Shown piece after piece: positions 1,403 through 32,486 of a stretch of 64,000 bases of DNA. The DNA is from an uncultured archaeon. Lineage in GTDB: Archaea; Nanobdellota; Nanobdellia; Pacearchaeales; GW2011-AR1. Location of the stretch: positions 39,589-103,588 of the forward strand of contig CABMGE010000010.1 of NCBI GenBank assembly GCA_902385625.1, given 5' to 3'. Each line of letters opens with the position of its first letter. Position 1 is the stretch's first letter. Under the pieces are notes generated by a model that was not told the origin of the DNA, ran no database searches, and saw only the letters and a program-made list of their open reading frames with translations. A program made the position numbers and the translations under genes.

Positions 1403-2080
1403 TTATATTATCTCGATTATCTCGCCAATATCTGCCTTTAGAGAGTATAACATCGGAGGCCTATATGAAACATTTTTGTTGATTCCTTGTTCCTTTAATA
1501 TATTTAGAGATAAAAGTTTTTTTGCAAAATTTCTTTTATCAAATTCCTTACCAAAAACAATTTCATACATGCTTTGAATCTGACTTATTGTAAACTTCTC
1601 TGGAAGCATTGAGAATGCAACAGTAGTGTACTCAAATTTCCATCGGAGTCTCTTAAGTGCATATTCAGATATCTTTTTGTGGTCAAATGCAAGTTCTGGA
1701 AGTTTTTTTAATGAAAACCATTGTGCATCTGAACTGTCAGTTGAAGGAGATAACTTAATTTTTTCTGAATTAACAAGAGCCATATAAGAAACAGTAATTA
1801 CTCTTCCTCGAGGGTCTCTTTTTGGATCTCCAAATGTATATAGCTGTTCTAAATAAACATCTTTTACTCCTGTTTCTTCTGCAAGTTCTCTTTTTGCTGC
1901 TTCATGCAAAGATTCATCGAGTTTTACAAAACCGCCTGGAATTGCCCATTTTCCCTTAAAGGGTTCTACTCCTCTTTTTACTAAAAGTAATTTTAAATCA
2001 TTATCGTTGATTGTAAATATTACAATGTCAACTGTTACACTTGGTTTGGGATATTCATTAGCAGCCATTTTCAAGAGCAA
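1403..2080 (-). CDS. nrtR: NrtR-like protein: Nudix domain plus C-terminal winged-helix (ADP-ribose-responsive regulator family)
   Basis: Intact Nudix box GGFVKLDESLHEAAKRELAEETG; C-terminal FDHKKISEYALKRLRWKFEYTTVAFSMLPEKFTISQIQSMYEIVFGKEFDKRNFAKK matches the NrtR wHTH pattern. Confidence 0.75.
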   Translation of the reverse strand: MLLKMAANEYPKPSVTVDIVIFTINDNDLKLLLVKRGVEPFKGKWAIPGGFVKLDESLHEAAKRELAEETGVKDVYLEQLYTFGDPKRDPRGRVITVSYMALVNSEKIKLSPSTDSSDAQWFSLKKLPELAFDHKKISEYALKRLRWKFEYTTVAFSMLPEKFTISQIQSMYEIVFGKEFDKRNFAKKLLSLNILKEQGINKNVSYRPPMLYSLKADIGEIIEII

Positions 2081-2978
2081 TTATATTTATTTCCTGCCAG
2101 TATTCATAGCCTCGTTTATACTGTTTTTTAAGACCTTTGTCCCTTAAATAGTTTATCCATTTTTCATCGTTTAAGATATTGTTAACTTTTAATGGAACTT
2201 TCATTTTTGCGAGTAGTTTCATTTTCATTTTCGGTTTTTTACTCAAAACCATATCCCAGCAAAGACTAGAGACATTTGTTATTATTACTCCACCCGGACT
2301 CAAATATTTCCCGCCTTCATGAACAATATGATTGAGAAGTCCAATTCCTTCATAAGGATTATCATCAATACTTTTTGGCCTTGGAACATAAGGAGGATTA
2401 CATATTATCAAGTCGAATTTCTGGCCATTTAATTTTTTAATTCCATCACCTACATAAAAAAGAGCCCTTGAATCTTTTATATTATCCATTGCACATTTTA
2501 TTGCATAAGGATTTATGTCATTTATTAAAATAGACTTTATTTTTTTATTTTTTTTCAAAAGATATTTGCTCAAGTATCCAGAACCACATCCGATTTCAAC
2601 TACTTTTTTAAAATCATCTTTATTTTTTAAAAAATCTTTTAGAGCTTTTGCAAAAAGAATAGTATCAATTGAAGGACACCATACGTTAATGTGGGATGAA
2701 TCTGTGGAAACTCCTATATTATCATACTCAACTGTTCTTTTTGAGGAGGAATAAAGAGAAAATAAAGTATCTCGAAGAGTTGGATTTAATCTCGAAATTC
2801 GATAGTTGTCTGTCATTAAAACTGGATCCTTAAAACTGCAAACATATAATTTTTCATCAGAAGTATAAGTTATTATCCTTCTTCCGTTTTTTCTGTCTTT
2901 ACCCATCACGCTTGCAAGTTCAACGCCATTTGCAAATATATCTTGTTTTTTTAAATCACTAGAAACTTTAATTATCAT
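2058..2978 (-). CDS. SAM-dependent methyltransferase with NPPY motif (HemK/PrmC- or N6-adenine-MTase-like) and a ~110-aa N-terminal extension
   Basis: Motif I VVEIGCGSGYL; motif IV DLIICNPPYVP; overlaps the nrtR-like start by 23 nt. Confidence 0.65.
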   Translation of the reverse strand: MIIKVSSDLKKQDIFANGVELASVMGKDRKNGRRIITYTSDEKLYVCSFKDPVLMTDNYRISRLNPTLRDTLFSLYSSSKRTVEYDNIGVSTDSSHINVWCPSIDTILFAKALKDFLKNKDDFKKVVEIGCGSGYLSKYLLKKNKKIKSILINDINPYAIKCAMDNIKDSRALFYVGDGIKKLNGQKFDLIICNPPYVPRPKSIDDNPYEGIGLLNHIVHEGGKYLSPGGVIITNVSSLCWDMVLSKKPKMKMKLLAKMKVPLKVNNILNDEKWINYLRDKGLKKQYKRGYEYWQEINIIALENGC

Positions 2979-2983
2979 ACATA

Positions 2984-3010
2984 ATTGTAATTAATACACT
3001 ATATATAAAG
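2984..3010 (-). promoter_or_regulatory. TATA box with adjacent TGTA-N5-TACA palindrome upstream of the methyltransferase/nrtR operon
   Basis: ATTGTAATTAATACACTATATATAAAG; same layout as 20976-21000 and 32423-32447. Confidence 0.4.
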
Positions 3011-3023
3011 TTTTTTAAAAAGT

Positions 3024-7339: not shown

Positions 7340-7340
7340 A

Positions 7341-8123
7341 TTATTTCTTTGTTAAAACATGCAGAGGTTTATTAGAAATTCTTACTTCAAGATTATCTCC
7401 ATTATTAAAACCATAAGCTTTATTTGAGTCTATTGCAACAATTCCGCCACCATATTTTTTACCTTCAAAAAATATTGATTCTCCTGGAAGTATTTCCCCA
7501 CTTAAAAGAGTTGGTTGATATAAATTTCCAAAATAAGGTTCTCTTACTAAAAATGCAAGTTTTCCTTTTTCATGATTAAATGGCTTTCCTCCTGCAGATC
7601 TATACCAGGCACTGCTTCCTCCTGCAGTTGCAACTAAAACTCCAGAACTTCTTTGTTCTTCTTCATTTCCCCTGTATTTAAGAACATAACGTGATGTTGC
7701 AAATTGCACTTCAGTACCTATATAGATTTCATTAATTGCTCTTTCTTTTATTACATGACCATTTTTTATTGCAACTGCTCTTTCTTTGTCAAGAACATTA
7801 TAATTCCCAAGTAAGATTTCGCTTAAAGAATCAATTTCATCATCTTTTAGGCTTGTTAGTGCTCCTTCACTATATTCAGGTTCTGAATTAATTCCAAGCA
7901 AAGGAACATCTTCAATATAATGTGCTGTTCTAATAACTGTTCCATCTCCTCCTGCAGTTATTACTAAGTCTCTATCTGCAAAATGCTTGAATTCCAGATC
8001 CCTGACATTGATTAATTTATTTTTTATTCCTACTTTACTAATTAATCCTTTTATGCTTTCTACAGCAGAAATATGCTGCTCTGTAAGTTTTTCGCTATAA
8101 ACCAATAGTATATTTTTAAACAT
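7341..8123 (-). CDS. nadK: NAD kinase
   Basis: GGDGT motif (ITAGGDGTVIR), NE motif, ATAGGSSAWYRSAGG. Confidence 0.85.
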   Translation of the reverse strand: MFKNILLVYSEKLTEQHISAVESIKGLISKVGIKNKLINVRDLEFKHFADRDLVITAGGDGTVIRTAHYIEDVPLLGINSEPEYSEGALTSLKDDEIDSLSEILLGNYNVLDKERAVAIKNGHVIKERAINEIYIGTEVQFATSRYVLKYRGNEEEQRSSGVLVATAGGSSAWYRSAGGKPFNHEKGKLAFLVREPYFGNLYQPTLLSGEILPGESIFFEGKKYGGGIVAIDSNKAYGFNNGDNLEVRISNKPLHVLTKK

Positions 8124-8124
8124 T

Positions 8125-9768
8125 TTAACTTCCTATATTTAATTTTTGCACCAAAGTAAGATTTAAATATTTATTGTTTTCCTTTGGAAAATCTTCCCTG
8201 AAATGACAGGCCCTGCTTTCTTCTCTTAACAAGGCACTTTCAATTATTACATGGGCAACTTCAACTATATTTCTTACCTCTAAAAAATCCTTTGTTACTT
8301 TGTAACTCCAATAATATTCTTTTATACTTTTTTCAAGAGACTTAATTATATCAAGTGCAGCAACTAATCTTTCTTTACTTCTTGACATTCCACAAAGGGC
8401 GTTCATTGTTCTTCTGACTACTTCCCAATAATATCCAACAGTTATTTTATCTCTGGATTCTTTCGCACTTCCTGTTCTCCAAAGAGGAATTTTTATTGAT
8501 TCTGGACTTTTTGTTTGTGATAAGAAATGCTTTGCTGCAAGCTCTGCAAATAAAATACATTCAGGACCTGAATTACTTGCAAGCCGAGTTGCGCCATGCA
8601 GCCCTGTGTAAGATGTTTCTCCAAGAACATAGCATCCGTTTATTTCAGTTTCACTATTTTTTCCAACTAAAACTCCTCCATTAGAGTAGTGTTCTGCATA
8701 AACAACAGGAACAGGCTCTTTTGTTATATCATATCCGTGCTTTTTACAAAATTCATAAGAGTTTTTAAAATCATTTTTTAATCTTTCTTTATCTATTTTT
8801 GTGCAGTCAAGCCAAACATGTGAAAGTCCATTTTTTCTCATCTCAATATCCTCTGCCCTTGAGACTACATCTCTTGTTGCTTTTGATCCCATTGGATCAT
8901 ATTTTAAAACAAAGTCCTCACTTGAGTTCATTGAAAGTTTGAGAATTGCTCCTGCTCCTCTTAATGCTTCTGTTAGTAAAAATCTTCTTTCAGTTTCATT
9001 TGTTGCAGAGGGATCATAAAAAACAGTAGGATGAAACTGAATAAATTCCATATTTGCAAGTGGGAGTCCTCTTCTATAACACATTGCAAAGCCATCTCCT
9101 GTTGCAACATCAGGATTTGAAGTATAAAGGAATGTTTTTCCAAGACCTCCTGTTGCAACAAAGGTTGCTTCACACTCCACAGTTTTTACATAATCATTTG
9201 TTATATCATAAACATAAAATCCAAAGCAGATATCATTTCCTGATTTTTTTTCTTGTAATTTATCTTTTGTTATAAGATCAATTACCATATGATTTTCATA
9301 TATAGTTATATTTGGATGATTAATAATTAGGTTTCTCAAAGTTTCCATAATTGTCTTTCCTGTTGTGTCTTTTATATGAAAAATCCTATTTTTCGAGTGC
9401 CCTCCTTCCCTATGAAGATCAAATTCTCCATCCTGCAAATCAAATTTTATTCCTCTTTTAATTAACCATTCAATTACATCTGAATAAAAATGTTCTGCAC
9501 AGTATTTTACAATTTTCTCATCATTAAGACCTTTTCCAGCTGCCAAGGTCTCTTTTACATGAAGATCAAAAGAATCATTTGTGAAGTTTGGAATTTTAAC
9601 TGCTGTAAGTCCTCCTGCAAGAAGATAACTACTGCAGTCTTCAGTTAATTTATTTTTTATAAAGAGTGCAACCTTTTTCCCTGCATCTGCAAGTTCAAGC
9701 GCAACTGCTGCTCCTGCAAGCCCTGCTCCGATTACTCCGCAATCTGCTTTTATTAAATCATTTGGCAT
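8125..9768 (-). CDS. nadB: L-aspartate oxidase (FAD flavoprotein)
   Basis: GVIGAGLAGAA dinucleotide fold, HREGGHS, LTEALRGAGAIL, RLASNS. Track ORF reaches 9789; the ATG at 9768 sits just after the nadR stop. Confidence 0.85.
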   Translation of the reverse strand: MPNDLIKADCGVIGAGLAGAAVALELADAGKKVALFIKNKLTEDCSSYLLAGGLTAVKIPNFTNDSFDLHVKETLAAGKGLNDEKIVKYCAEHFYSDVIEWLIKRGIKFDLQDGEFDLHREGGHSKNRIFHIKDTTGKTIMETLRNLIINHPNITIYENHMVIDLITKDKLQEKKSGNDICFGFYVYDITNDYVKTVECEATFVATGGLGKTFLYTSNPDVATGDGFAMCYRRGLPLANMEFIQFHPTVFYDPSATNETERRFLLTEALRGAGAILKLSMNSSEDFVLKYDPMGSKATRDVVSRAEDIEMRKNGLSHVWLDCTKIDKERLKNDFKNSYEFCKKHGYDITKEPVPVVYAEHYSNGGVLVGKNSETEINGCYVLGETSYTGLHGATRLASNSGPECILFAELAAKHFLSQTKSPESIKIPLWRTGSAKESRDKITVGYYWEVVRRTMNALCGMSRSKERLVAALDIIKSLEKSIKEYYWSYKVTKDFLEVRNIVEVAHVIIESALLREESRACHFREDFPKENNKYLNLTLVQKLNIGS

Positions 9769-9769
9769 C

Positions 9770-10801
9770 TTATTCCTTGGTCTTTTCAAAAAGCTTGTTT
9801 ACCAAAGATCTTGCGCTATCAAATCTTTCTTTATAATTTCCAGAAATTGTTACAAAATCAATTCCTCTATCTTTATACATTTGTTTTAGAATTTCATTGT
9901 TTTTCATTCTTACTTCTTTTTCACCTTTATTTCTAAGTCCATCAGGAACCCATTTTACATCAGGTTCAAGATATATAACAAGATCATATTTTTGTTTTTT
10001 AGCTATTTCATCGATCAAATTTGATCTTTCACCATTAAAATACATATCAAGATAATACTGAGTTATTACTGCTTCGCTATCTACAAACAAAACCTTATTA
10101 CTAGTTTCTGCTTTTTTATCTTGTAAAAGAAAATGCTCCATTGCAATCTTATCAAACATTTCTACTGTCAATTGATTCTTATATTTATCACAATAATCTC
10201 TTCCTACTTCTTGTACAAACTCAGTATTATAGAATTTTGCAAGTTTTTTTGTAAGAGTTGATTTTCCGCAACTTTCTGTTCCAACAATTGCAACTCTCTT
10301 TGTAAAATATGATCTTACAGTGTTTGGCAGTTTATCCCAGTTATCATAAAGATTTATTCTTAAATCGGTTGCAGATGTAGTGACTGTTTTTCTTTTATCG
10401 TCGATTACAATATGTTTTGAATTTGGATAATATTTCTTAAAAATTTCATCATAAGAGTGTTCTGAACTAAAAACAAAATCAATCGGTTTTCCAATAGCTT
10501 TTTTAATCATTTCTGCACCTTTTTCCCAGTTATAATCTTTATCCCACTGATCATCTTCAATATGAATTATTTTTACATTTTCAAGATTATTTAGAGATTC
10601 TCCAATCCAAGAGAGCCTTACATCTGCCGGAATATATTTTATCCCATCTCTTTCGCATAATTCGCGATCCCGATTTTTTGATGAAGATACAATCACATAT
10701 AGTTCATCCACCTGATTTGATGCATCCATTATTGTATAAATATGGCCTTGATGAAATGGTAGATATTTCCCACCAATAAATCCTACTGTTTTATTTTCCA
10801 T
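9770..10801 (-). CDS. nadR: NadR-type bifunctional NMN adenylyltransferase / ribosylnicotinamide kinase (no N-terminal HTH)
   Basis: GGKYLPFHQGH nucleotidyltransferase motif; P-loop GTESCGKST. Track ORF reaches 10849; ATG at 10801 preferred. Confidence 0.85.
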   Translation of the reverse strand: MENKTVGFIGGKYLPFHQGHIYTIMDASNQVDELYVIVSSSKNRDRELCERDGIKYIPADVRLSWIGESLNNLENVKIIHIEDDQWDKDYNWEKGAEMIKKAIGKPIDFVFSSEHSYDEIFKKYYPNSKHIVIDDKRKTVTTSATDLRINLYDNWDKLPNTVRSYFTKRVAIVGTESCGKSTLTKKLAKFYNTEFVQEVGRDYCDKYKNQLTVEMFDKIAMEHFLLQDKKAETSNKVLFVDSEAVITQYYLDMYFNGERSNLIDEIAKKQKYDLVIYLEPDVKWVPDGLRNKGEKEVRMKNNEILKQMYKDRGIDFVTISGNYKERFDSARSLVNKLFEKTKE

Positions 10802-11519
10802 TTTGTTCTTTTTCAAGCTTCCTCCAGTTATAATATCCATAAAGAGCATTTACTAAAAATGCTGTCCACATAACAAGCATGCTGACTTGGTTACCATCTC
10901 TTAAAAAGATGTAAACCCACATTACAATAGACCAAACATCAACCATTATCCAGTAAAACCATTGGTCTGAATATCTTTTTGTTAGAAAAACTGTAGCAAT
11001 AATTGAAAAAATAGTTGTCGTTGAATCAATAAATGGAAGTGTTCCATGTATTGCTTTTAAAAGAAGGCCAAAAAAGTATAAGGCAATTAGAGATACTATA
11101 AACCAAAATATTTTATCTCTCCATTTTAAACTTTTTACAAGTACTCTTTCTGAAACATTTATTTTTTTATAATTTTTTTTCCAATAATAGATTCCTGGAA
11201 AGGTCATTGGAAGGAAAAATAACATGTTTAGACCAACATCACCATAATAAGCACTTTGCCATGCTACATAAGAGTAAGCAAGAATATTTATTATTCCCCA
11301 ATAAAAACTGCTGATTTTTCCCTTGGCAGTTAATACTACGCAAAGCATTCCTGTAATTGAAGCTGTAAGGCCTATCCAAGTATCATGCCACGCGAAAAAC
11401 AAGCAGATATTGATTATTGTGAATGAAACTAACCAGATTTTCTCAAATGTTGTCCAATCATTAAAATAATTTTTAATACGGGTAGATCTTTTCAATTTTT
11501 GTTCTGAATTTGTTTTCAT
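10791..11519 (-). CDS. pnuC: nicotinamide riboside transporter PnuC
   Basis: 242-aa polytopic membrane protein; TGMLCVVLTAKGKISSFYWGIINILAY typical of PnuC; adjacent to nadR. Confidence 0.85.
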   Translation of the reverse strand: MKTNSEQKLKRSTRIKNYFNDWTTFEKIWLVSFTIINICLFFAWHDTWIGLTASITGMLCVVLTAKGKISSFYWGIINILAYSYVAWQSAYYGDVGLNMLFFLPMTFPGIYYWKKNYKKINVSERVLVKSLKWRDKIFWFIVSLIALYFFGLLLKAIHGTLPFIDSTTTIFSIIATVFLTKRYSDQWFYWIMVDVWSIVMWVYIFLRDGNQVSMLVMWTAFLVNALYGYYNWRKLEKEQNGK

Positions 11520-12358
11520 ATTTTGAATTTTGTTTTTAATTTTTTATCTAGATTAATTAGATAATCTCTTCCAAAATTATTGTTTTCAAGACCCTTTATT
11601 AATGTTTCTGGAAGATCATTTTTTATTTCTTTTGAGCATGAAGCCGCACCCATTGCTATTGCTGCAACTGTATCTACATCTCCTCCAAAATTAACACAAG
11701 TTTCAAGAACTTTTGAAAGAGAGTCTTCTTTTTGAATCGCAGTTATTCCAGCCATAACTGCCATGAATCCTTTTGCACCAACTTCCCCTTTCCAAGGCAA
11801 ATTCCAGTTACCTGGAACATAGTTAGAAATGAATTTACCTAAATTTTTCTTTTCTCCAAGATCATAAATAAAATAGTGTGACATTAATGCTGCTGCAACT
11901 GCGGCATCCATTCCACCCGAGGTATTATGAGTAATTGATCCTTGAAATTTAACATAATCTATTAATTGACCTATATCTGGCAAAAACCCTAGTGGAGGAG
12001 CACGCATTGCACCTCCATTTTTATCACTATTAGGCTTTATTTTTTCTAAAAATTCCTTTCCTGATTTTATTTCCTTTAAAAATAAATAAAAAGCTCCTGC
12101 ATAACCTTCTCTTTCATCTCTTTTAAAAACTTCAACAAATTTATTTGCAATGTTTAATTGAGTCCATTCTTTATTCTCGAGTAATAATTCTGCAATTCCT
12201 ATACTCATCTGAGTATCATCAGTATATCTACCATTACCAATATCATATTTTTGATGTTTACGATAGGAACTTAAATCATTAAATTTTTCAATTATTTCTC
12301 TTGGAACATATTCAAATCCTGCACCGTATGCATCGCCTATAGCAATTTCCAGTAACAT
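11516..12358 (-). CDS. ADP-ribosylglycohydrolase (ARH/DraG family)
   Basis: N-terminal IGDAYGAGFEY, GRYTDDTQMS, C-terminal GGDVDTVAAIAMG. Confidence 0.8.
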   Translation of the reverse strand: MLLEIAIGDAYGAGFEYVPREIIEKFNDLSSYRKHQKYDIGNGRYTDDTQMSIGIAELLLENKEWTQLNIANKFVEVFKRDEREGYAGAFYLFLKEIKSGKEFLEKIKPNSDKNGGAMRAPPLGFLPDIGQLIDYVKFQGSITHNTSGGMDAAVAAALMSHYFIYDLGEKKNLGKFISNYVPGNWNLPWKGEVGAKGFMAVMAGITAIQKEDSLSKVLETCVNFGGDVDTVAAIAMGAASCSKEIKNDLPETLIKGLENNNFGRDYLINLDKKLKTKFKI

Positions 12359-12359
12359 T

Positions 12360-13151
12360 TTAGCTCCTTACAAAATCTATAATTTTATTTTTAAGGTCCA
12401 AATCAACATCGCAACTTACAAATCTATTTTTAGAAACTTGTTTGAATTTTACATAAGGCTCCTCAAGTCCTGCACTAACGGTTAGAACATCATACATTGC
12501 ACATTTGGTTTTTGGAGGATGATCTATCCAGGAGTCTGTATTTGTATAATCTAGCCATCTTACTGCACTTTCATATAAAAAATTGCCAAGAGGACTTACA
12601 TTTAACTTGGCGAGCTCATCTTTTGTAAATGATATCTTATCTGAGTCTTCTTTTGTCACCTGATAAATATTCCAAGGCTCCTCTTGAACTCTTTTCCAGG
12701 ATTCTATATCGGATTTAAAATTGTGAGAGTCAATACAACCACCCATAACATAAAGGTCTTTTACATTTTTAATAGTCGGATTTATCTCTAACTGTAATGC
12801 AATATTTGTCAAAGGACCGATACAAATTAGTTTAGTATTTTTTGTATAAGTTGGATAAGGACTGTTCTTAAAGGATTCTTTTAATTCTTCCTCGGTTAAT
12901 GCAAGTTTTTCAAATCCAGTCCAGTATTTTTTAATAGAAGATTTAGGTCCTGCAACTCCTGCAGTTATTGGAATATCTACTCCTAAAAGTCTTTCGAGTT
13001 TTCGTGTAATCCTTGCTCTAATTTCTGTATCTCCATGGGTTAAAGTTATTCCAACTAGATTTGAATTTGGATTTTTAATTGCATATGTTAATGCAAACAA
13101 ATCATCAACATCTGTTCCTGCATCTGAGTCTATTATTATTCTTTGTTTCAT
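12360..13151 (-). CDS. nucleoside hydrolase (IU-NH family)
   Basis: IIIDSDAGTDVDDLFAL aspartate cluster. Confidence 0.8.
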   Translation of the reverse strand: MKQRIIIDSDAGTDVDDLFALTYAIKNPNSNLVGITLTHGDTEIRARITRKLERLLGVDIPITAGVAGPKSSIKKYWTGFEKLALTEEELKESFKNSPYPTYTKNTKLICIGPLTNIALQLEINPTIKNVKDLYVMGGCIDSHNFKSDIESWKRVQEEPWNIYQVTKEDSDKISFTKDELAKLNVSPLGNFLYESAVRWLDYTNTDSWIDHPPKTKCAMYDVLTVSAGLEEPYVKFKQVSKNRFVSCDVDLDLKNKIIDFVRS

Positions 13152-13152
13152 T

Positions 13153-13752
13153 TTAGACTCCTGCTCCCAGTATTCTCATTTTTTCTTCTTCTGCGCTTTT
13201 GTAAAATTTAGAATTCTTATATTCCAGAGTCTGTTTTCCAAATTCCCTTTTAAATCTCTCAATAATTTTTTTCTCTTGCAGATAATTTGCTACTGAAGCT
13301 GGAACCATAGGTTTCCAATTTCTATCTTTTGCAATTTCTATTCTTACTTTTGAAGAGTTTAATTCAGACTCTTTAAACTCCGGGACTATTTCAAAAGGAT
13401 GTAAAATTTTGTAAGTGTCTTTTAAAATTTCAGTTACGTAGGCATTTCCAGTAATAAAATAATCTAAATTTCCAAAATGACTAATAACTGCAGATTTCCA
13501 TTTTTTATCGTTTCCAAAATCAATAAGCTCAATGAAAGAATAATTTGCAAATTTTGAAGACAAAAAAGTTTCAATCATCTCTATTGACTCTTTTGCGCTA
13601 AAAGGATTTCTTAGATCATATTTATTTGAACTCCCAATTCCAATAATAACAGAATCTGAATTTCTGCAAACAGATTCGAGTAAAGCAGAGTTTCCATTAT
13701 GAAGAGGCTTAAATCTTCCAATTAAACCAACTCTTCCAAACTTAGTATCCAT
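13153..13752 (-). CDS. archaeal-type nicotinamide-nucleotide adenylyltransferase-like protein
   Basis: GLIGRFKPLHNGN (HxGH-like), GIGSSNKYDLRNPFSAKESIEMIE. Track ORF reaches 13794; ATG at 13752 follows the upstream stop at 13757. Confidence 0.65.
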   Translation of the reverse strand: MDTKFGRVGLIGRFKPLHNGNSALLESVCRNSDSVIIGIGSSNKYDLRNPFSAKESIEMIETFLSSKFANYSFIELIDFGNDKKWKSAVISHFGNLDYFITGNAYVTEILKDTYKILHPFEIVPEFKESELNSSKVRIEIAKDRNWKPMVPASVANYLQEKKIIERFKREFGKQTLEYKNSKFYKSAEEEKMRILGAGV

Positions 13753-13756
13753 TTTA

Positions 13757-14347
13757 TTATCCAACAACCCTCTTATAATTTTGGCTCTGTTCATATTTTA
13801 AAACAAGCTCTTTAGAATGCTCAGATAAATTTTGGAATTCTCTTTCTTTTAGGTAAATACAAAGAATAACTGGATGGCTTTTAAATGCCCAAACAGCGTC
13901 AGAATTCTTCTTTTCAGGTTCATAAAAAGGTTTATCCAAAAGATTTGCTATGTCTTCAATTGTAAGCACTCTTGCATTTTTTGCATCTTCATCTGGATGA
14001 GGCATTAACTTTCCAACTCCAACTCCTGTAAAAGTTATGCTTGAAACAAATGCCCTTGGATCTTGCTCAGGATAAGATAAGACACATAATGGTTTGTAAA
14101 ACGGCTTATCTACAATAAAATCAAGACCTGTCTCTTCAAGTCCTTCTTTTATTGAATTTTTATGAAAGTGCATTTTCTCTGCCATTCCTCCTGGAATTGC
14201 AAGTCCAAAAGGAGGAAATTTTCTTTCAATAAGCACTAATCCTCCATTATATCTTACAAGTAGATCTGTTGCACAGTAAGGGCCTTCATACTTATCTTTT
14301 AGATATTCTTTAAATGTGGGATATATTTTTTTATCTGGATTTGGCAT
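13757..14347 (-). CDS. Nudix hydrolase (ADP-ribose pyrophosphatase candidate)
   Basis: Partial Nudix box PGGMAEKMHFHKNSIKEGLEETGL. Confidence 0.7.
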   Translation of the reverse strand: MPNPDKKIYPTFKEYLKDKYEGPYCATDLLVRYNGGLVLIERKFPPFGLAIPGGMAEKMHFHKNSIKEGLEETGLDFIVDKPFYKPLCVLSYPEQDPRAFVSSITFTGVGVGKLMPHPDEDAKNARVLTIEDIANLLDKPFYEPEKKNSDAVWAFKSHPVILCIYLKEREFQNLSEHSKELVLKYEQSQNYKRVVG

Positions 14348-14348
14348 T

Positions 14349-16349: not shown

Positions 16350-16353
16350 GGTT

Positions 16354-16620: not shown

Positions 16621-16644
16621 TATTTCATATCTAATTGTATCTCT

Positions 16645-26105: not shown

Positions 26106-26844
26106 TTTTTTCAATTGCAGATTGTATTTTAGATATTGATGATTCATATATTAAAGATTTTAATGCGATTAGAGAAGCTTCATAATAATTATTATTTGCA
26201 AGTGCGCTGTAAACTCTTGTGCAAGTAGCATTATCATCGATACAACCAAGTATTGAATCACTAAATACTAATGCTCCAAGATCAGATCTTGACTTGACCC
26301 CTAAAAGATAGGGTTTTGATTTATCATTTAGTTGACTTGCAACCATTTCACCTATTGCCTCGTAAAAAGGATCAAGTTTTCTTAGATTTGGAGAACTTAA
26401 ATCAACTGGTCTCTCTAAATCATATCTTTTCCTTATTTCAGACTCTTGTTTTTTAGTCAGTGCTTTTTTTCCTGACTTTACAAGAGCTTCTTTTGCAAAA
26501 AGACCTGTTTCAAACACAACTGTTTCAAGATTTAGATAAGAAGATCCTTTTTCTCCTTTATCTTCTCCCTTTTCCCTTTCTGATTCTCTTAATTTTTTTG
26601 ATATTGTCTCAAGATTATCGCATACAGTGTAACCTGGTTCTACAACTTTTGTGAAGTATTCAAGAAACATTAAAGACTTAAAATATTCAATGGGCTTTAC
26701 TCTTGTCCGGTCTATAACCTCGGTTGATACAAGTTTTTGAAAAAAAGTATTTTCATGCATACTGAATACTACCTTATATTCCAAATCATGCAAAGGTGAT
26801 AAATTTTTTACGATTGTTCCAATATGTTCATTTTCGTTTACCAT
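26095..26844 (-). CDS. hypothetical protein (orphan 3 of the MoxR-vWA operon)
   Basis: 249-aa ORF, overlaps its neighbours by 7 and 11 nt; central K/E-rich segment; no motif. Confidence 0.6.
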   Translation of the reverse strand: MVNENEHIGTIVKNLSPLHDLEYKVVFSMHENTFFQKLVSTEVIDRTRVKPIEYFKSLMFLEYFTKVVEPGYTVCDNLETISKKLRESEREKGEDKGEKGSSYLNLETVVFETGLFAKEALVKSGKKALTKKQESEIRKRYDLERPVDLSSPNLRKLDPFYEAIGEMVASQLNDKSKPYLLGVKSRSDLGALVFSDSILGCIDDNATCTRVYSALANNNYYEASLIALKSLIYESSISKIQSAIEKNAK

Positions 26845-27698
26845 TTTATACTCCTTGCAGCCTCTACTTTTATATTTTTTTCAATTAATTTTTGATAAGT
26901 TTTTTCAAGAGTATTAGTAGTTTCCCTATACCTTGGTATCCAGTAGAGATCATCAAGGAATAATTCTGCACTTCTTTCGCTATGATAAATTTTATTTCTA
27001 ACCATTGGAAGGGCTTTTCTGTGAACCTTGTCTTTATTTGCAGTGATCATATCTGAAATATCTTTTGGAGAGGCATTTCCACTTAATTTTTGAATTTTTT
27101 TATAAAAATCAGGATCAAAACTTCCCTCGAATATTGAGATATATTCAGGAATTGTCAAAAGATCATATACTTTTTTGTCTAAAACAAGTATTCTTTCAGA
27201 GCCTTGCATTTCAGAATTAAAAATAGAGCCATCATCAAGTTTTGTCACAAGTCCTTTTCCAACAATTGATTGAGCATTGGGCTTTATCATTTTTTCATAT
27301 ACTTTGTTAATTCTTTCAATCAGTTCTTGTCCTAGCTGATTACTTGCTCTTACTTTTGCTCCAGTAGAACCAAGATCAGTTATTCCGTTTACAACACGCT
27401 CAATAAAATCCTGCTTCACCTTAGTTATTTTATCTAAATTTTCTGAAAAATATCTGTCTTCTTGTATTTTTGGAGACTCTATTTCATCAAGTCCAAAAAC
27501 TCTTGTGTAAACTTTTATTCTTTTGTCCTGAACTGGATTTTTTGAAGCAACAAAAATATGCCCATTGTAGATTATTTGAAGGCAATCTCTTGAAAACACA
27601 GGTGGCTCTGGAATATTTAGAGATGAATCTATTTCTGCATCTATTATTTTTATATCATCTTCAAAAAACATATTGCCTCCGCGAATTACTTTTGCCAT
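26838..27698 (-). CDS. hypothetical protein (orphan 2 of the MoxR-vWA operon)
   Basis: 286-aa ORF, 1-nt stop/start overlap at 27698; no motif. Confidence 0.6.
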   Translation of the reverse strand: MAKVIRGGNMFFEDDIKIIDAEIDSSLNIPEPPVFSRDCLQIIYNGHIFVASKNPVQDKRIKVYTRVFGLDEIESPKIQEDRYFSENLDKITKVKQDFIERVVNGITDLGSTGAKVRASNQLGQELIERINKVYEKMIKPNAQSIVGKGLVTKLDDGSIFNSEMQGSERILVLDKKVYDLLTIPEYISIFEGSFDPDFYKKIQKLSGNASPKDISDMITANKDKVHRKALPMVRNKIYHSERSAELFLDDLYWIPRYRETTNTLEKTYQKLIEKNIKVEAARSIKW

Positions 27699-28249
27699 TA
27701 TTCTTTTATCTCCAAAGATTTAATTGACTCTGAATCCAAAAGACCCATGTGAGCAAGTAGCCCGACTACCATTACTCTTTCTGCTATTTGTCTGTAATTT
27801 CTGCCTTCGGGAATATCGGCGGCTTTTGGATGATTTAATCCCACACTTAATAAATTAAAAGATAATTTTGGAACAGTTTTATAAATTCTTATTTGAGAAT
27901 CTTTTTCATAGGAAGAGAGAAACTCTTTTCCAAGTTCCTCAGACAACTTATCATAAGAAGCTATTGCAATATTGAGTTCTGTTTTTTCATCAGTTACACA
28001 ATTTCCAGACCAGTCAAATAAAACAGAGTCAGTTGAAGGGTAAAAAACCGCAGTTCCTGTTGCCCAAAAACTACAATCTCCTCCTTCAGGTGTTAAAGGT
28101 TTAATTCCTTCATAAAGTATTGGTTCAATATACTTAGGTCTTTTTATTCCGTGATAGATTAATTTTTTATTATTAGACTCATCTATAATTCTTTTTACTA
28201 ATGAATCCATTTTAATTCCAAGTATTTCAGATATTTTTTCTTCAATCAT
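27698..28249 (-). CDS. hypothetical protein (orphan 1); weak resemblance to an H-Y-E ADP-ribosyltransferase core
   Basis: ATGA overlap with the QueC-like gene at 28246-28249. LIYHGIKRPKYIEPILYEGIKP...CSFWATG recalls hhHG(S/T)x6IhxxGh...YFA. The CDS call is solid; the fold call is tentative. Confidence 0.55.
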   Translation of the reverse strand: MIEEKISEILGIKMDSLVKRIIDESNNKKLIYHGIKRPKYIEPILYEGIKPLTPEGGDCSFWATGTAVFYPSTDSVLFDWSGNCVTDEKTELNIAIASYDKLSEELGKEFLSSYEKDSQIRIYKTVPKLSFNLLSVGLNHPKAADIPEGRNYRQIAERVMVVGLLAHMGLLDSESIKSLEIKE

Positions 28250-29112
28250 ATTGTTATCTCCCTTGTTTTGTATTCCAGAGGATCTTCCATATTCAGCTCC
28301 CTGAAGGCTTTTAATCTTTTCTGACATGCAAAACATGTTCCATCTGCAACAAGATCTGAACTAAAACAAGTTCTTGTTTTTTCAACTGGAATAAAATTTT
28401 GCATTGCATATTCAATTATATCTCGTTTAAAAATAGGATGATAGTCTTTACCTAAGCTATTTTCAGAAATTATATTAGGATCTGTAAATGGAGAGGTTAT
28501 TTGCCAGTCCCAATCTCCAAGTTGCACACATGTGCTTAAAGTTTGAGTTCTTAAACTTAAAAGCCCTTGTTCTGGTTCTATAAAATCATCTCCTGTGCTT
28601 GCTGAAAAAATTGTTTTAATGTTTAAATTATATCTTCCATTTAAAGAAACAGCATACATTACAGCAAGATTTTGCATTGTTGAATTTCTTAGAGGCAAAC
28701 CTTGTGTGAGTGAAAGTTCTTTTGGAAAATATTGTTTAAATTCCTTTGGAGGTACTTTATACTCTAGTTTAAATCCATCCCCAATATTACTTGGAAATCT
28801 TTTTTTATAAAAATCAATAAAAAAATCAAATGAATTTTCTTCATGTTTTTCTGCCCTTGCTCCTCTTTTGATAAAAAGCGGGTAAACTTTCGCACTATTA
28901 TTTTCAATTAAACTATTAATCATTACAATAGAGTCAAGTCCTCCTGAACAAAGTGCTACAACACTTTCCTTATTTGGAATTCTTGTAACATACTTTCTAT
29001 TCATTTGAAGAATTGCTTCAATTAACACAACATTTTCACTATAAAGGTTTTGAGCTTGCTTTACTCTTTCTCTTATTTGTTCTATTGTTTCTGGCATTTT
29101 TATTTTTTTCAC
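28246..29112 (-). CDS. QueC-like PP-loop ATPase
   Basis: VVALCSGGLDS, PLRNSTMQNL, SPFTD, C-terminal TCFSS...DGTCFACQKRLKAFRE Cys cluster, DPLEY. Confidence 0.75.
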   Translation of the reverse strand: MKKIKMPETIEQIRERVKQAQNLYSENVVLIEAILQMNRKYVTRIPNKESVVALCSGGLDSIVMINSLIENNSAKVYPLFIKRGARAEKHEENSFDFFIDFYKKRFPSNIGDGFKLEYKVPPKEFKQYFPKELSLTQGLPLRNSTMQNLAVMYAVSLNGRYNLNIKTIFSASTGDDFIEPEQGLLSLRTQTLSTCVQLGDWDWQITSPFTDPNIISENSLGKDYHPIFKRDIIEYAMQNFIPVEKTRTCFSSDLVADGTCFACQKRLKAFRELNMEDPLEYKTREITI

Positions 29113-29123
29113 CCTGTTTCATT

Positions 29124-30143
29124 TTAATTGTAATTTTCAGATATTGCTTTAAACAGTCCAATTGCTGCTTTTGCAGATTCTTTTCCTCTTGCAACATCAT
29201 CTCCAATCATAAATCGATTATATCCCATTAGTATTCCGCAATAGACATCAAATAATTCTGCACACCTTGGAATCTCATCAATATTTGAGAGAGACTCAAG
29301 CATTCTTGAAGCCATTACTGCTCTTGGATTTGATTTAATTATTTTTTTACACGCAGCAATCACATGATCTGGCTGGTCAACTTCAGTGTATAGATCCCCT
29401 CTTGCAGCCATTAGATCAATTCGATTTTTATATTTAGGATATACAGTATCAATAAATTCAAGTCCTTTTTTTGATTCTATTTTTGCAATTATTCTTGCTT
29501 TTGGATCAATAGATAAAAGATCAGTTATATCACTCTCTTTTTCAACAAAAGAAAGCATGAAATTATTCATTCCAAGACTTTTTCCAGCCTCAATATATTC
29601 TTTATCTTTATTTGTAAGGTATCCTTGAATTACTAAAGATGGATCAGTAATATTTACAGACATTCCAGGCCTTATTCCAATTTGACCTTGCAATGGGAGT
29701 GGAATACCTATTTTTCTTTCAACTGAACCTTCTACAACCAAGACATTATCATTTAATAGGTCTATAATTTGTCCCCTGTAATGAGCATTATCAGTGTAAA
29801 CCTCTGCAGGTTTTGTCACACTTATTTTGTGGCTCAAGGTAATATAATGAAGTTCTTTATCTCTTAGAAATTTTACATTGTAATCATCAACTCGAAGTTG
29901 CCTTGCCTTTAAATCAATCCAAACAGGTTTTAAATCTGCTTCAGATCTTACATGAGTAAGAATTTCCAAGGGAGTTTCTTTTAATCTTTGAGTTGTATTT
30001 AGCCTGACTGATTCCACAATATAACTATCTGCAAGACTTTTAAATTTTGCAAGAGGCGGCACTGTTAATACCATTCTTATTCTTCTCTTAGTCATGTTTT
30101 TGAAGGGGTTTATCATTTTATAAATTTTTCTACATGTTACCAC
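29124..30143 (-). CDS. pyruvate-kinase-like protein, A (TIM barrel) + B domains only, no C domain
   Basis: IIAKIESKKGLEFID, LMAARGDLYTEV, VMASRMLESL align with the PK motifs KIEN.EG, ARGDLG.E, ATQMLESM. Start may be ATG 30116. Confidence 0.7.
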   Translation of the reverse strand: MVTCRKIYKMINPFKNMTKRRIRMVLTVPPLAKFKSLADSYIVESVRLNTTQRLKETPLEILTHVRSEADLKPVWIDLKARQLRVDDYNVKFLRDKELHYITLSHKISVTKPAEVYTDNAHYRGQIIDLLNDNVLVVEGSVERKIGIPLPLQGQIGIRPGMSVNITDPSLVIQGYLTNKDKEYIEAGKSLGMNNFMLSFVEKESDITDLLSIDPKARIIAKIESKKGLEFIDTVYPKYKNRIDLMAARGDLYTEVDQPDHVIAACKKIIKSNPRAVMASRMLESLSNIDEIPRCAELFDVYCGILMGYNRFMIGDDVARGKESAKAAIGLFKAISENYN

Positions 30144-30167
30144 TCGAAAAGTGTATCAGAATTTAGC

Positions 30168-30186
30168 AAAAGACCTTAGGTCTTTT
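30168..30186 (-). terminator. perfect hairpin between the vWA paralog and the eight-gene operon
   Basis: AAAAGACCT-T-AGGTCTTTT (9-bp arms), 20 nt downstream of the stop at 30206. Confidence 0.45.
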
Positions 30187-30205
30187 TATCAAAACTTGAA
30201 AAAAA

Positions 30206-31201
30206 TTAATCAGTATCTATTTTCTTGCTAGATTTTCTTTTTGTAGGTTTTGAAGATAAAAGCGGGTGAAGAGTTCTGAGTACATCGTCAACTTGTCCAG
30301 GAGTTTGCCTTCTTCTAAGCATTTCTTCTGCTTCTTTGAAGTTATCTGCTGCATAACCAAAAATCCCGATCATGCAATCAACAGCACGATCAAAGTTGTC
30401 TCCCATTCTTAAAACTCTTTCAGGACCAAAAACATCTTCCCATTGTTTTTGAACTTTCGCATAATCATCTGAGTCATAGCTTAATTCAGGCCTTAGAACG
30501 AAAACATCAAATTTTTTCTTTAGTTTTTTCATTTCAGTTACAGTATCCAGGTCAGAAGTTAGATTAAGCCCCATATAGTTATTAACTTCTGAAGCTAAAA
30601 TTTTTGGATAGAATCCTTCATCTCCAAGTATGATTAAAGGGACTTTTGTTCCCTTAGGGACATTTGGAGTTTTGCTGTGATTTGCTAAATAATATATACC
30701 TAAGTCATAACTTTCTTTTACATTTCCTCCGCCCATACCTTCGGGAAAAATTCCTGCAACTCCTTTTACAAGATCAGTTCCATGGCAATAATCAAGTACC
30801 TGGAATGGAAATCTTTCTGGTCCGCGAGGATTTCTAGAGTCTCCAATTGCAATAATTGCCAAATCAAGCTTATCTTCTAGAGTGTTTCCTTTTTCAAGTT
30901 CCTTTAATTTCTTTCCTTGAATTGCTGCATTTGATTCTGCATAAAAAGTAGATATTTTTGTAAAAAACATTTCTGGAATTTTTTTCATTGATCCTGTTTG
31001 ATCGATTAAAATTGCTCCTGCATACTCACTATTTGTAGAAATATCTTTTCCATTTACTCCGGGCAAGCCAGTTCTTACTGGTGTAACATATTCTCTTTTA
31101 TCATCTACAGCATAATCCCTGGCTGTTTTTCTTGTAACGCTAGGTGCTGGACTAAAACTATAATCCCTTGAACTGCTGTAGTCTGAACTTGATCCTCCCA
31201 T
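30206..31201 (-). CDS. stand-alone vWA-like protein, paralog 2, with S/Y-rich N-terminus
   Basis: MGGSSSDYSSSRDYSFSP...; MIDAS-like LIDQTGSM; about 50-60% identical by eye to 31374..32345, including the C-terminal AEEMLRRRQTPGQVD. Confidence 0.7.
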   Translation of the reverse strand: MGGSSSDYSSSRDYSFSPAPSVTRKTARDYAVDDKREYVTPVRTGLPGVNGKDISTNSEYAGAILIDQTGSMKKIPEMFFTKISTFYAESNAAIQGKKLKELEKGNTLEDKLDLAIIAIGDSRNPRGPERFPFQVLDYCHGTDLVKGVAGIFPEGMGGGNVKESYDLGIYYLANHSKTPNVPKGTKVPLIILGDEGFYPKILASEVNNYMGLNLTSDLDTVTEMKKLKKKFDVFVLRPELSYDSDDYAKVQKQWEDVFGPERVLRMGDNFDRAVDCMIGIFGYAADNFKEAEEMLRRRQTPGQVDDVLRTLHPLLSSKPTKRKSSKKIDTD

Positions 31202-31373
31202 GTTGTTTTTTGTTCTAAAGGTTATTTAAAGATTTAGATAAACCAATGTATTTTATACTTTTTATATAAAATAGCAATAGATATTTGTTTTTGAACTAAT
31301 TCACTTAATACAAAAACAATTTTTATCTTATATCTTTTTATTTTTTAGTTTTTTATTTTTCCTCCAAGGTTAT

Positions 31374-32345
31374 TTAATTTTTTTTAATTGTTCTCTTTCT
31401 TGCTGGCTTTGAAGATGTAAGTGGATGCAATGATTTCAAAACTTCATCAACTTGTCCAGGAGTTTGTCTTCTTCTAAGCATTTCCTCTGCTTGTTTGAAA
31501 TTATTTGCTGCATATCCTGCAATTCCTATAAAACAATCTACAAGTCTTGATGGATCGTTCATCTTCAAAACTTTTTGCGAGTTTCCACCTAGTAATTTTT
31601 GCCAGTGTTCATGTGCTTCTTTGTATACTACATTATCTGGTTCTGCACCTGGCTCGGGTCTTAATACATAACTATCAAACTTATTCAAAACTCTCTTCAT
31701 TACAGTATCTGATGAAAGTGAACTTGGTATTTTATCTCCAAATAATTTTTTAACATGGTCTTTGTGAATTGTAGAATAAAAGTCCTCATCGCAGGCATAA
31801 ACTAAAAGAGGTTTTTTCTTTGAATTTATCTTGCAATGATTATCAAGATAGTAAGCTACAAGTTCATAACTCTCTTCTCCAAATGGTCCGCCCCCTCCTT
31901 CTGGATGAATTGATTTAACTCCTTTAACAAGCTCTGATCCCTTTGAGAAATCAATGATTTGCAATGGGTAATTATCATAGTTCATATCTCCTACTGCAAT
32001 AATTGCCATTTCAAGTTTATCTTCTAATTTTTTTCCTGATTCCAAATCTTTTAGTCTTAATCCTTGTATTGCAGCATTAGATTCTGAATACAATGTTGGA
32101 ATTTTGTTAAAAATTAATTTTGGCCAGTCTTTCATAGATCCAGTAACATCAACAACAAAGATAGCTGCATAATCACTATCTGTAGAAATATTTTTTCCAT
32201 GCACTGTTGTTATGCCTCTTGTTGGAGCAGCATATTCTCTTTTATCCTCTTTTGCATAATCCCTTGCTGTTCTTTTTGTAACGCTAGGTGTAGGACTAAA
32301 GCTATAGTCTCTTGAACTTCCGTAATCTGAACTAAATCCTCCCAT
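31374..32345 (-). CDS. stand-alone vWA-like protein, paralog 1, with S/Y-rich N-terminus
   Basis: MGGFSSDYGSSRDYSFSP...; VVDVTGSM; HPEGGGGPFGEE; CDEDF. Confidence 0.7.
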   Translation of the reverse strand: MGGFSSDYGSSRDYSFSPTPSVTKRTARDYAKEDKREYAAPTRGITTVHGKNISTDSDYAAIFVVDVTGSMKDWPKLIFNKIPTLYSESNAAIQGLRLKDLESGKKLEDKLEMAIIAVGDMNYDNYPLQIIDFSKGSELVKGVKSIHPEGGGGPFGEESYELVAYYLDNHCKINSKKKPLLVYACDEDFYSTIHKDHVKKLFGDKIPSSLSSDTVMKRVLNKFDSYVLRPEPGAEPDNVVYKEAHEHWQKLLGGNSQKVLKMNDPSRLVDCFIGIAGYAANNFKQAEEMLRRRQTPGQVDEVLKSLHPLTSSKPARKRTIKKN

Positions 32346-32397
32346 GTTGTTTTTGTGAAAAAGGTTTTTCCTTTTTTATTATCCTCGGTTGTATTTT

Positions 32398-32486
32398 GTT
32401 AGTGTTTATTTTACTATAACTTATTGTAGTATTTACACTATATAAATATTATTGTTGTGAATAATATATGTATTAATTACACTAAG
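32398..32486 (-). promoter_or_regulatory. promoter/operator module homologous to 20951..21037
   Basis: GTTAGTGT ... ACACTAAG ends; TGTA-N5-TACA at 32425-37 and 32469-81; ATATAAAT at 32440-47. Confidence 0.5.

Follow-up and report, generated by a model that had tools for sequence, protein, structure and literature searches.

Most operators of the NrtR repressor family are 21-bp palindromes with the core GT-N7-AC (Rodionov et al. 2008, PMC2330246). Among QueC-like enzymes, Cap9 attaches 7-carboxy-7-deazaguanine to Gly2 of CD-NTases with an MGGS N-terminus (bioRxiv 10.1101/2025.04.06.647259), and QatB requires an MGTS N-terminal motif to work with QatC (PMC13279940). Here we analysed a 64-kb window (the whole stretch of DNA under study, from contig CABMGE010000010.1 of an uncultured archaeon; G+C ~31%) that carries an NrtR-family gene, a block of genes for nicotinamide adenine dinucleotide (NAD) salvage and ADP-ribose recycling, two small von Willebrand factor A (vWA) paralogs that begin with MGG, and eight further open reading frames (ORFs), one of which is QueC-like. 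One NrtR-family repressor probably switches on NAD recycling together with this previously undescribed gene cluster, which resembles a protein-modification system.

The exact palindrome TGTA-N5-TACA occurred 10 times in the 64 kb, compared to 0.94 copies expected, and 0 of 100 shuffles reached 10. Six of these copies sat in three promoters, with one before the methyltransferase (MTase)-nrtR pair (2986), three before the NAD operon (20956, 20978, and 21020), and two before vWA paralog 2 (32425 and 32469). Masked intergenic DNA held 3 sites against 0.058 expected, and this count leaves aside the NAD promoter, which was masked by a spurious ORF. The proximal operator copy always came directly after a TTTATA(T/A)A box, and a second copy lay ~44 bp upstream; this TATA-abutting geometry is as would be expected for an archaeal repressor that blocks the recruitment of TBP/TFB or of the polymerase. 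The operator before paralog 1 is degenerate, with one mismatch, and retains the GT-N7-AC core. When promoter sites of the window and of eight related lineages, 25 in all, were pooled, the consensus was ttAgTGTAntnanTACAcTaa (ttAgTGTA-N5-TACAcTaa), in which G6 and T7 as well as GT...AC were invariant. Because the core of the pooled consensus is the GT-N7-AC of a 21-bp palindrome, the predicted operator matches what is expected of the NrtR family. The arrangement of TATA box and operator at the window's MTase-nrtR promoter was also seen in L051, and the three-operator layout of the NAD promoter recurs in L052 (L0xx labels denote the related loci that were compared with the window). The MTase-nrtR mRNA is probably leaderless, since its ATG lies at 2978.

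Outside these promoters, the site at 38165 was not counted for the regulon, as it lies ~290 bp from a ThyA-like gene and has no TATA context, and the sites at 15552 and 48279, both within coding regions, were treated as chance occurrences. Three one-mismatch sites (TGTA-N5-TATA/TAGA, 43 and 64 bp apart) were located at 630-749, in the intergenic region 512-783 before the gene of a 142-aa membrane protein (83-511), and they may mark one more, weak target or an operator of a related kind. The 5' leaders of vWA paralog 2 (32346-32420), the NAD operon (20896-20950), and vWA paralog 1 (31202-31240), all on the minus strand, have in common a short hairpin followed by (C)ACAAAAAYAAC right before the start codon; the L027 leader is ~200 nt long.

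The operators are conserved in relatives. The same promoter, with distal operator, TATA box, and proximal operator, precedes the orthologous vWA gene in L002/L003, a metagenome-assembled genome (MAG) from NCBI, and in the closest relative, L027, in which a tightly packed run of eleven genes, from vWA to PfkB, stands behind it. In L034, the TATA box of the vWA gene is accompanied by a proximal operator and by another one downstream. The operator further precedes the NAD operons of L001, L004, L013, and L052 and the MTase-nrtR pair of L051. One could suppose that no functional coupling exists, the vWA promoter being a duplicated NAD promoter or the target of another regulator, and the adjacency being synteny by descent within one lineage. 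The NAD and paralog 2 promoters of the window are indeed alike beyond their operators, vWA-upstream operators were found only in the nearer relatives L002, L027, and L034, and other relatives have different palindromes, such as TGTA-N8-TACA in L010. However, operators and spacing were kept while the intergenic DNA diverged and the proteins fell to 52-66% identity, L002 retained its operator though no NAD gene is nearby, and the distant L013 again links vWA and pyruvate kinase-like (PK-like) genes to NAD genes. We consider such a mere adjacency very unlikely.

Synteny gives a similar picture. We distinguished class A loci, of the QueC/MoxR type, from class B loci, which combine a kinase, a vWA protein, and a PK-like or PurA-like protein. 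In L001 and L004, NAD salvage genes lie directly upstream of a vWA-vWA-PK-like-...-QueC-like-...-AAA+ series. In the Woesearchaeota locus L013, which is of class B, the vWA and PK-like genes are embedded among NMNAT, ADP-ribosylglycohydrolase (ARH), and IUNH genes. The 1.36-Mb contig L051 has a PK-like gene ahead of IUNH-PnuC-NadR-ARH-NadB; this gene adjoins an incompletely retrieved, probably vWA-like ORF inside the NAD cluster. The coupling between NAD genes and the module is thus real and recurrent, but it is lineage-specific, because it was seen in several relatives and is absent in L010 and L011. The initial annotation had asked whether the island co-occurs as a block across related genomes; the gene blocks do so in L001 and L004 and in part in L013 and L051.

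By comparison with Pfam, NCBIfam, and the Protein Data Bank (PDB), the 1403-2068 product belongs firmly to the NrtR family. Its N-terminal part matched NUDIX (PF00293, 8.8e-23) and its C-terminal part NrtR_WHD (PF21906, 4.8e-20), whereas the NCBIfam model NF050029 'ADPR responsive repressor' was matched at 6.5e-55 with 186 bits, under the cutoff of 400. In the PDB, AraR (5bs6, 1.6e-46) and Shewanella NrtR (3gz5, 7e-40) both aligned over the full length. Homologs fall into more than 120 clusters at 73-90% identity and come from MAGs, several of them labelled Nanoarchaeota. The same regulon might respond to another ligand, such as NAD+, nicotinic acid adenine dinucleotide (NaAD), phospho-ADP-ribose, or a pentose, in which case the circuit would report precursor supply and not NAD consumption. 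For such a ligand speak the arabinose-responsive AraR, which is the best solved relative, the score under the cutoff of the ADPR-responsive repressor model, and the inclusion of pentose regulators in the NrtR family (PMC2330246). However, the Nudix box GX5EX7REXXEEXG, read directly from the sequence, is intact, and the regulated genes are NAD and ADP-ribose genes, not pentose genes. The presence of ARH and a Nudix hydrolase among them favours NAD or ADP-ribose as the signal. ADP-ribose would be the effector if the regulator works like bacterial NrtR, and we regard a different ligand as quite unlikely.

The MTase gene directly precedes nrtR and overlaps it, and the pair is also present in L051 (9091-10014) and L052 (9056-9976); L001 carries the C-terminus of the MTase. 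In L001, the MTase is followed by a 226-aa gene, which was rejected as an NrtR (E=0.41). In Nanoarchaeota-type loci, the MTS-type MTase with its NPPY motif always lies immediately upstream of nrtR and overlaps it.

The two vWA paralogs are ~325 aa each, and in Foldseek the AlphaFold2 (AF2) model of paralog 2 matched integrin beta-I, SpaC, and TFIIH p44, so that the predicted structure confirmed the vWA fold of these small proteins. Their N-termini, MGGSSS and MGGFSS, stand on a tail that is disordered over residues 1-45 in the paralog 2 model (predicted local distance difference test, pLDDT, <60). In the family alignment, M1, D66, T68, G69, and S70 were invariant and G2 was conserved in at least 90%, and every class A vWA gene with a readable start begins with MGG. 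An exact look-up of the window's vWA protein returned no record, and the sequence and profile search of the vWA family against the PDB gave nothing significant. MAGs of Nanoarchaeota, Pacearchaeota, and Woesearchaeota supplied the relatives of the window's vWA gene.

The QueC-like protein encoded beside them matched Pfam QueC (PF06508, 2.7e-9) partially, over its C-terminal part, and PADLOC QueC at 4e-10. Because the vWA proteins have disordered MGGS/MGGF tails, Cap9 and QatB offer precedents, and the QueC-like protein has a weak match to Cap9, the vWA proteins may well be N-terminal substrates of the QueC-like enzyme. This pairing of an MGG N-terminus with a QueC-like protein, which the initial annotation had overlooked, gives the strongest hint at how the module works.

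The remaining module proteins are of mixed character. The PK-like protein is a genuine but divergent relative of pyruvate kinase and the most constant neighbour of the MG-vWA family (in many longer loci), adjoining the vWA gene for example in L001, L002, L004, L006, L010-L016, L027, L029, L032, L033, L036, and L044-L046. In NCBIfam, relatives of the PfkB protein were ribokinase, ribose-1-phosphate kinase, and nucleoside kinase, all under the cutoffs. The 636-aa protein reached AAA_5 with E=0.005, below cutoff, and had no PDB sequence or profile match, whereas its Walker A, DEINR, and QNP motifs were invariant; the motifs of the 735-aa protein are likewise invariant alignment columns, with no Pfam or PDB match. 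The eight ORFs at 21087-30143, initially annotated as a MoxR-vWA operon, were confirmed as genes, and the names 'MoxR' (636 aa) and 'vWA' (735 aa) are tentative labels drawn from weak or motif evidence. The 249-aa and 286-aa core proteins had no Pfam match at E up to 5.

The 183-aa protein, earlier noted as a possible orphan of the ADP-ribosyltransferase (ART) type, gained moderate support from structure prediction. It had no sequence-level match in Pfam (E up to 5) or the PDB. Its AF2 model, built from 3 sequences (pLDDT 72; predicted template modelling score, pTM, 0.74), matched Tpt1 (8tg3, 8tg4, and 1wfx) in Foldseek with probability 0.98-0.99, E ~4e-3, and a template modelling (TM) score of ~0.33, followed by pertussis toxin S1 at 0.44. 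In BFVD, it matched a putative RNA 2'-phosphotransferase of a phage (0.96) and the catalytic domain of a PARP (0.60). These predictions suggest, with moderate confidence, an ART/Tpt1-like fold. One homolog is fused to a nucleoside diphosphate kinase (NDK). Only the window, L001, and L004 carry the gene, each with NAD genes adjacent, and it is absent from L002, L010, L011, and L027. That it tracks adjacent NAD genes is suggestive, in a sample too small for a test, with 3 class A loci that combine NAD genes, operator, and ART-like gene and 3 without.

All the genes that had been described as contiguous on one strand do lie on the minus strand (Table 1), where the MTase, an aldehyde dehydrogenase (ALDH), a 248-aa ORF, and a small-ORF array are further members of the stretch, but a plus-strand gene at 5591-7339 breaks the series. 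Also as annotated initially, the NrtR-like gene, the NAD/ADP-ribose operon (both by Pfam), and the two vWA paralogs (by AF2 and Foldseek) exist. The plus-strand gene lies between the NAD operon and the 248-aa ORF; its product of 582 aa is strongly acidic with repeated DSDLSLGDSDINL-like units, and a counterpart is missing from the syntenic L051.

Table 1. Features of the minus-strand series and its promoters (positions in the window).
Feature	Position	Strand	Details
Whole minus-strand series	1403-32345	-	nrtR, MTase, ALDH, 248-aa ORF, NAD block, small-ORF array, eight ORFs, two vWA paralogs
NrtR-family regulator	1403..2068	-	Nudix domain and C-terminal winged helix
MTS-type methyltransferase, NPPY motif	2058..2978	-	Pfam MTS 5.1e-16
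Putative autoregulatory promoter	2984..3009	-	TATA tttatata 3009-3002, then directly operator AGTGTAttaatTACAAT 3000-2984
NAD salvage/ADP-ribose recycling genes	7341..19640	-	PncB, PncA x2, TAA-interrupted NMNAT, NadE, Nudix, NMNAT, IUNH, ARH, PnuC, NadR-like, NadB, NADK (Pfam)
Small-ORF array	19642..20895	-	at the start of the NAD transcription unit; three ~95-105-aa paralogs and two ~60-90-aa ORFs
NAD operon promoter	20954..21034	-	operators: distal 21034-21018, proximal 20992-20976, third 20970-20954; TATA tttataaa 20999-20992
PfkB-family sugar/nucleoside kinase, last module gene	21087..22040	-	Pfam PfkB 5.8e-41
735-aa protein, N-terminal HExxH (HEQLH) and C-terminal vWA-like metal ion-dependent adhesion site (MIDAS; DSSGSM ... 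TDG)	22024..24216	-	motifs only
636-aa MoxR-like AAA+ ATPase	24237..26147	-	GETGVGKT, DEINRGD, AQNP
249-aa conserved core protein	26095..26844	-	orthologs in L001, L002, L004, L010, L011, L012, L027
286-aa conserved core protein	26838..27698	-	orthologs in L001, L002, L004, L010, L011, L012, L027
ART/Tpt1-like accessory protein, 183 aa	27698..28249	-	conserved YHGIK, PLTPEGG, SFWxTG, ELN, RxxRQ
QueC-like PP-loop ATPase	28246..29112	-	SGGLDS; C-terminal Cys cluster
Pyruvate-kinase barrel-like (PK-like) protein	29124..30143	-	Pfam PK 6.3e-17; PDB pyruvate kinases down to 1.5e-11
MGG-vWA paralog 1	30206..31201	-	N-terminus MGGSSSDYSSSRDY...; family alignment
Paralog 1 promoter	31247..31270	-	TATA tttatata 31270-31263 and degenerate operator AGTA-N5-TACA 31259-31247
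MGG-vWA paralog 2	31374..32345	-	N-terminus MGGFSSDYGSSRDY...; DxTGS MIDAS; AF2 pLDDT 83
Paralog 2 promoter	32423..32483	-	distal operator 32483-32467, TATA tttatata 32446-32439, proximal operator 32439-32423

Within the NAD block, the NMNAT-like gene at 16354-17097 (-) is split by one in-frame TAA (16645-16647; …QFEGGVK*RDTIRYE…), and its orthologs in L001 and L004 are single genes of ~233 aa; the split gene is a pseudogene, a read-through case, or the product of a sequencing error. In the small-ORF array, the three paralogs end in GGWN/GEWN and the two interleaved partner ORFs have a common Y..NF.G..I.(V/I)SL motif; the array gave no family match and has no counterpart in the related loci.

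The wider vWA family comprises 2224 clusters at 50% identity and mostly stands beside a Ser/Thr kinase and a PK-like or PurA-like enzyme instead of QueC. The class B loci (L006-L009, L013-L017, L020-L021, L025, L033, L040, and L044-L050) combine a Ser/Thr kinase, often fused to DnaJ, an MG/MSE-vWA protein, and a PK-like or adenylosuccinate synthetase-like enzyme. PRK, NMNAT-CoaE, Nudix, or ARH genes are sometimes close, and the hosts are bacteria, Candidate Phyla Radiation (CPR) lineages, archaea, and large IMG/VR contigs. No description of this neighbourhood was found in the literature searched, and its partner proteins matched only generic kinase models in PADLOC.

These neighbours raise a metabolic explanation, in which the vWA and PK-like proteins with the QueC-like and MoxR-like proteins would be an accessory for NAD or nucleotide scavenging in a host-dependent archaeon, neither immune nor signalling, for example by maturing or regulating a salvage enzyme or by making a nucleotide-derived cofactor; the co-regulation by NrtR would then reflect membership in the same pathway. 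MoxR-vWA pairs are classical maturation chaperones (CoxD/E, NorQ/D, and CbbQ/O), which fits this explanation, as does the interleaving of vWA and PK-like genes with NMNAT, ARH, and IUNH in L013 and the position of the PK-like gene before IUNH in L051. The partners are all of the nucleotide or sugar-phosphate type (PK-like, PfkB, ThyA-like, Ham1-like, and the NDK fusion, with PurA-like, PRK, and NMNAT-CoaE in class B), housekeeping genes lie on either side, no genes of mobile elements were seen, and PADLOC gave no match. However, the family is patchy, with 97 matches in a word-indexed search of 5.8 billion proteins against more than 120 clusters at ≥73% identity for NrtR, and the module stands without NAD genes in L002, L010, L011, distant bacteria, CPR, and IMG/VR contigs. 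Moreover, accessory genes differ among close relatives, and the conserved MGG tail and the QueC-like enzyme indicate protein modification. We hold a purely metabolic role to be somewhat unlikely.

Taken as a whole, the explanation towards which we lean, and the best one at hand, is an NrtR/ADP-ribose regulon of the NAD operon and the MGG-vWA gene, with N-terminal modification by the QueC-like enzyme. The predicted NrtR-family repressor would bind the 21-bp palindromes ttAGTGTA-N5-TACACTaa directly downstream of the TATA box, and at the second copy ~44 bp upstream, and would control its own MTase-nrtR operon, the 13.5-kb NAD salvage and ADP-ribose recycling operon, and MGG-vWA paralog 2, with the degenerate copy before paralog 1. 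NAD consumption would yield ADP-ribose and, as in bacterial NrtR, release the repressor, upon which NAD resynthesis and the vWA gene would be induced together; in L027, where the genes are tightly packed, the entire vWA/PK-like/QueC-like/MoxR-like module would follow. The 183-aa ART/Tpt1-like protein is a plausible NAD consumer. After removal of Met, the QueC-like PP-loop enzyme would most likely adenylate a carboxylate and ligate it to the free N-terminal Gly of MGG-vWA, a step modelled on Cap9 acting on CD-NTases and on QatC, which is thought to act on QatB. The MoxR-like ATPase and the HExxH-vWA protein could remodel or process the complex, and the PK-like and PfkB kinases, together with the ThyA-like and Ham1-like enzymes of relatives, could supply or process a nucleotide-like ligand. 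A self-buffered NAD/ADP-ribose defence circuit, as first suggested for this locus, would be a reasonable but hypothetical model.

Several observations weigh against this explanation. On the side of regulation, the shared TGTA-N5-TACA/TATA architecture that had been claimed stood for the MTase-nrtR, NAD operon, and paralog 2 promoters and in degenerate form for paralog 1, but the eight-gene operon has no operator site in its upstream gap (30144-30205) and is separated from paralog 1 by a T9 tract and a hairpin. For both reasons, only the vWA gene or genes can be assigned to the regulon with confidence in the window, and the joint regulation initially proposed for the NAD operon and the module is backed by operators at the NAD operon and paralog 2 and not at the eight-gene operon. 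In the archaeal loci L010 and L011, the module has neither the operator nor any NAD gene in the 10 kb upstream of it, and the 860 bp that could be inspected upstream in the bacterial L012 also contained no operator. The effector of AraR, the closest solved relative of the regulator, is arabinose and not ADP-ribose. On the side of modification, the sole PDB sequence match of the QueC-like protein was the weak one to Cap9 (9nto, E=0.027), the 64 kb showed no genes for 7-deazaguanine synthesis, L012 retains MGG-vWA with no QueC-like gene in the locus, and class B loci keep conserved vWA N-termini without QueC. Among the top family representatives, 94 of 147 start with MG, and the others (about a third) with MSE, MAE, or MSG. 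In addition, the fold assignment of the 183-aa protein has the modest TM score given above, and PADLOC, when run on ten module proteins, returned only weak QueC/QatC matches (QatC 0.0024 and 0.0012) and a Nudix candidate model, with no model for the module. On balance, the NrtR regulon itself has good support, phylogenetic footprinting and synteny partly supported the initial regulon hypothesis, and the biochemistry of the module and any defence role are inferred.

A more far-reaching version, which we consider speculative and unlikely, would make the module a third, archaeal class of QueC-family nucleobase- or acyl-protein conjugation, gated by ADP-ribose via NrtR and armed by NAD depletion. 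The ligand on Gly2 would then be 7-deazaguanine or, given the NAD context, a pyridine carboxylate, for example a nicotinate-derived nucleotide. NAD depletion, for example in a virus attack or by the system's own ART/Tpt1-like enzyme, would arm the module and at the same time start NAD resynthesis. The MG/MSE-vWA proteins at large, partnered by PurA-like, PK-like, and kinase proteins, would form a general signalling family of 'N-terminally nucleotidylated vWA' proteins.

Because the rest of the window encodes archaeal housekeeping genes (aminoacyl-tRNA synthetases, IMPDH, TrmB, and DTD2), the window is cellular chromosome, from a DPANN archaeon of the Nanoarchaeota type, and not a virus. A viral origin of the cluster was likewise rejected, as viral contigs hold only distant class B vWA genes; the QueC-like protein, scanned against viral contigs, had no match. 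An Rfam scan of the window found no family. Elsewhere in the window, the ThyA-like gene at 37139-37870 (-) is a distant paralog (26-29% identity) of the module ThyA-like genes in L001, L010, L011, L027, and L032; a 78%-identical ortholog adjoins the L002 module, and the exact TGTA-N5-TACA at 38165-38177 lies ~290 bp upstream. The gene at 33758-35032 (+) encodes a secreted-looking protein of 424 aa with at least 6 Cys-rich repeats (GPGGCKGKEECDKFCEDEANFNVC...) and no Pfam family. In L032, a sirtuin-like ORF (7193-7684, -; N-terminus read by eye) lies ~3 kb downstream of a minimal vWA-ThyA-like-QueC-like-PK-like module, and is another NAD-consuming enzyme near the vWA family.

If true, this would be the first reconstructed archaeal NrtR regulon, in which a one-component repressor of bacterial type acts at archaeal TATA promoters; the literature searched contained no paper on such a regulon in archaea. 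Many genomes labelled Nanoarchaeota carry the regulator in highly conserved form, yet its annotation is only that of a Nudix hydrolase. A conserved, unannotated module (MGG-vWA, PK-like, QueC-like, two core proteins, MoxR-like, HExxH-vWA, and PfkB) is tied to NAD metabolism both physically and through shared operators. The regulon also offers a concrete model for the transcriptional sensing of NAD depletion. The MGG/QueC pairing, if true, would extend the newly discovered N-terminal nucleobase conjugation beyond bacterial CBASS and Qat to archaea and to a new substrate class, and a possibly antiviral system would be tied to the NAD status of the cell in a tiny symbiotic DPANN archaeon.

The module resembles three known kinds of system (QueC-family defence, MoxR-vWA ternary systems, and ARG-centric systems with Nudix-type transcription factors) and carries the defining components of none; for the combinations QueC with MoxR and vWA and adenylosuccinate synthetase with vWA and kinase in defence, and for DPANN NAD salvage, nothing was found in the literature searched. 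With Cap9 of type IV CBASS and QatC/QatB of QatABCD, it has in common a QueC-like PP-loop enzyme beside a protein whose M-G-G/T-S N-terminus stands on a long disordered tail. The module differs from both. Pfam, NCBIfam, and PADLOC recognized no CD-NTase, Cap10 (TGT), Cap11, KAP NTPase (QatA), or TatD (QatD) among the operon proteins; the QueC-like enzyme would act on a vWA protein and has MoxR-like, HExxH-vWA, PK-like, and PfkB partners; and the system belongs to an archaeon, with NrtR-type transcriptional control on top.

Kaur et al. (2020, PMC7159879) described MoxR-vWA ternary conflict systems, in which a MoxR-type AAA+ goes with a vWA protein, further conserved proteins, and a peptidase-like domain; the putative MoxR-like and HExxH-vWA proteins of the module are similar, and both kinds are patchy in distribution. 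The systems of that study occur in multicellular bacteria, whereas hosts of the window type are unicellular archaea with reduced genomes and the MoxR and vWA labels are motif-based here. No VMAP, iSTAND/STAND, FtsH, or beta-propeller was recognized in the operon proteins by Pfam, and the window adds small MGG-vWA proteins and nucleotide enzymes. The ARG-centric systems (Iyer et al. 2022, PMC9503650, section 3.8), which have a Nudix-HTH or WYL regulator and vWA chaperones, share with the window an ADP-ribosylglycohydrolase, a Nudix-HTH repressor, and a vWA protein in one neighbourhood, as well as the proposed logic that ADP-ribose lifts repression. Those systems are bacterial, usually have rhodanese-phosphatase partners, and are defined by having no linked ART, whereas in the window no phosphatase partner was seen, ARH lies within a full NAD salvage operon, and an ART/Tpt1-like gene is linked.

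The bacterial NrtR regulons (PMC2330246; 3GZ5) are the closest counterpart for the NAD part. Common to both are the Nudix and winged-helix repressor, the 21-bp palindrome with its GT-N7-AC core, autoregulation, and the targets pncA/pncB, nadE, nadR-pnuC, and NMNAT, with an ADP-ribosylglycohydrolase included, as in the nrtR-draG locus of Streptomyces. The predicted NAD regulon of the window amounts to a standard NrtR regulon moved onto archaeal promoters; it differs from the bacterial ones in its archaeal host, in the fusion of the operator to the TATA box, in the conserved MTase-nrtR pair, and in the MGG-vWA gene that has joined the regulon, accompanied in relatives by the QueC-like/MoxR-like module.

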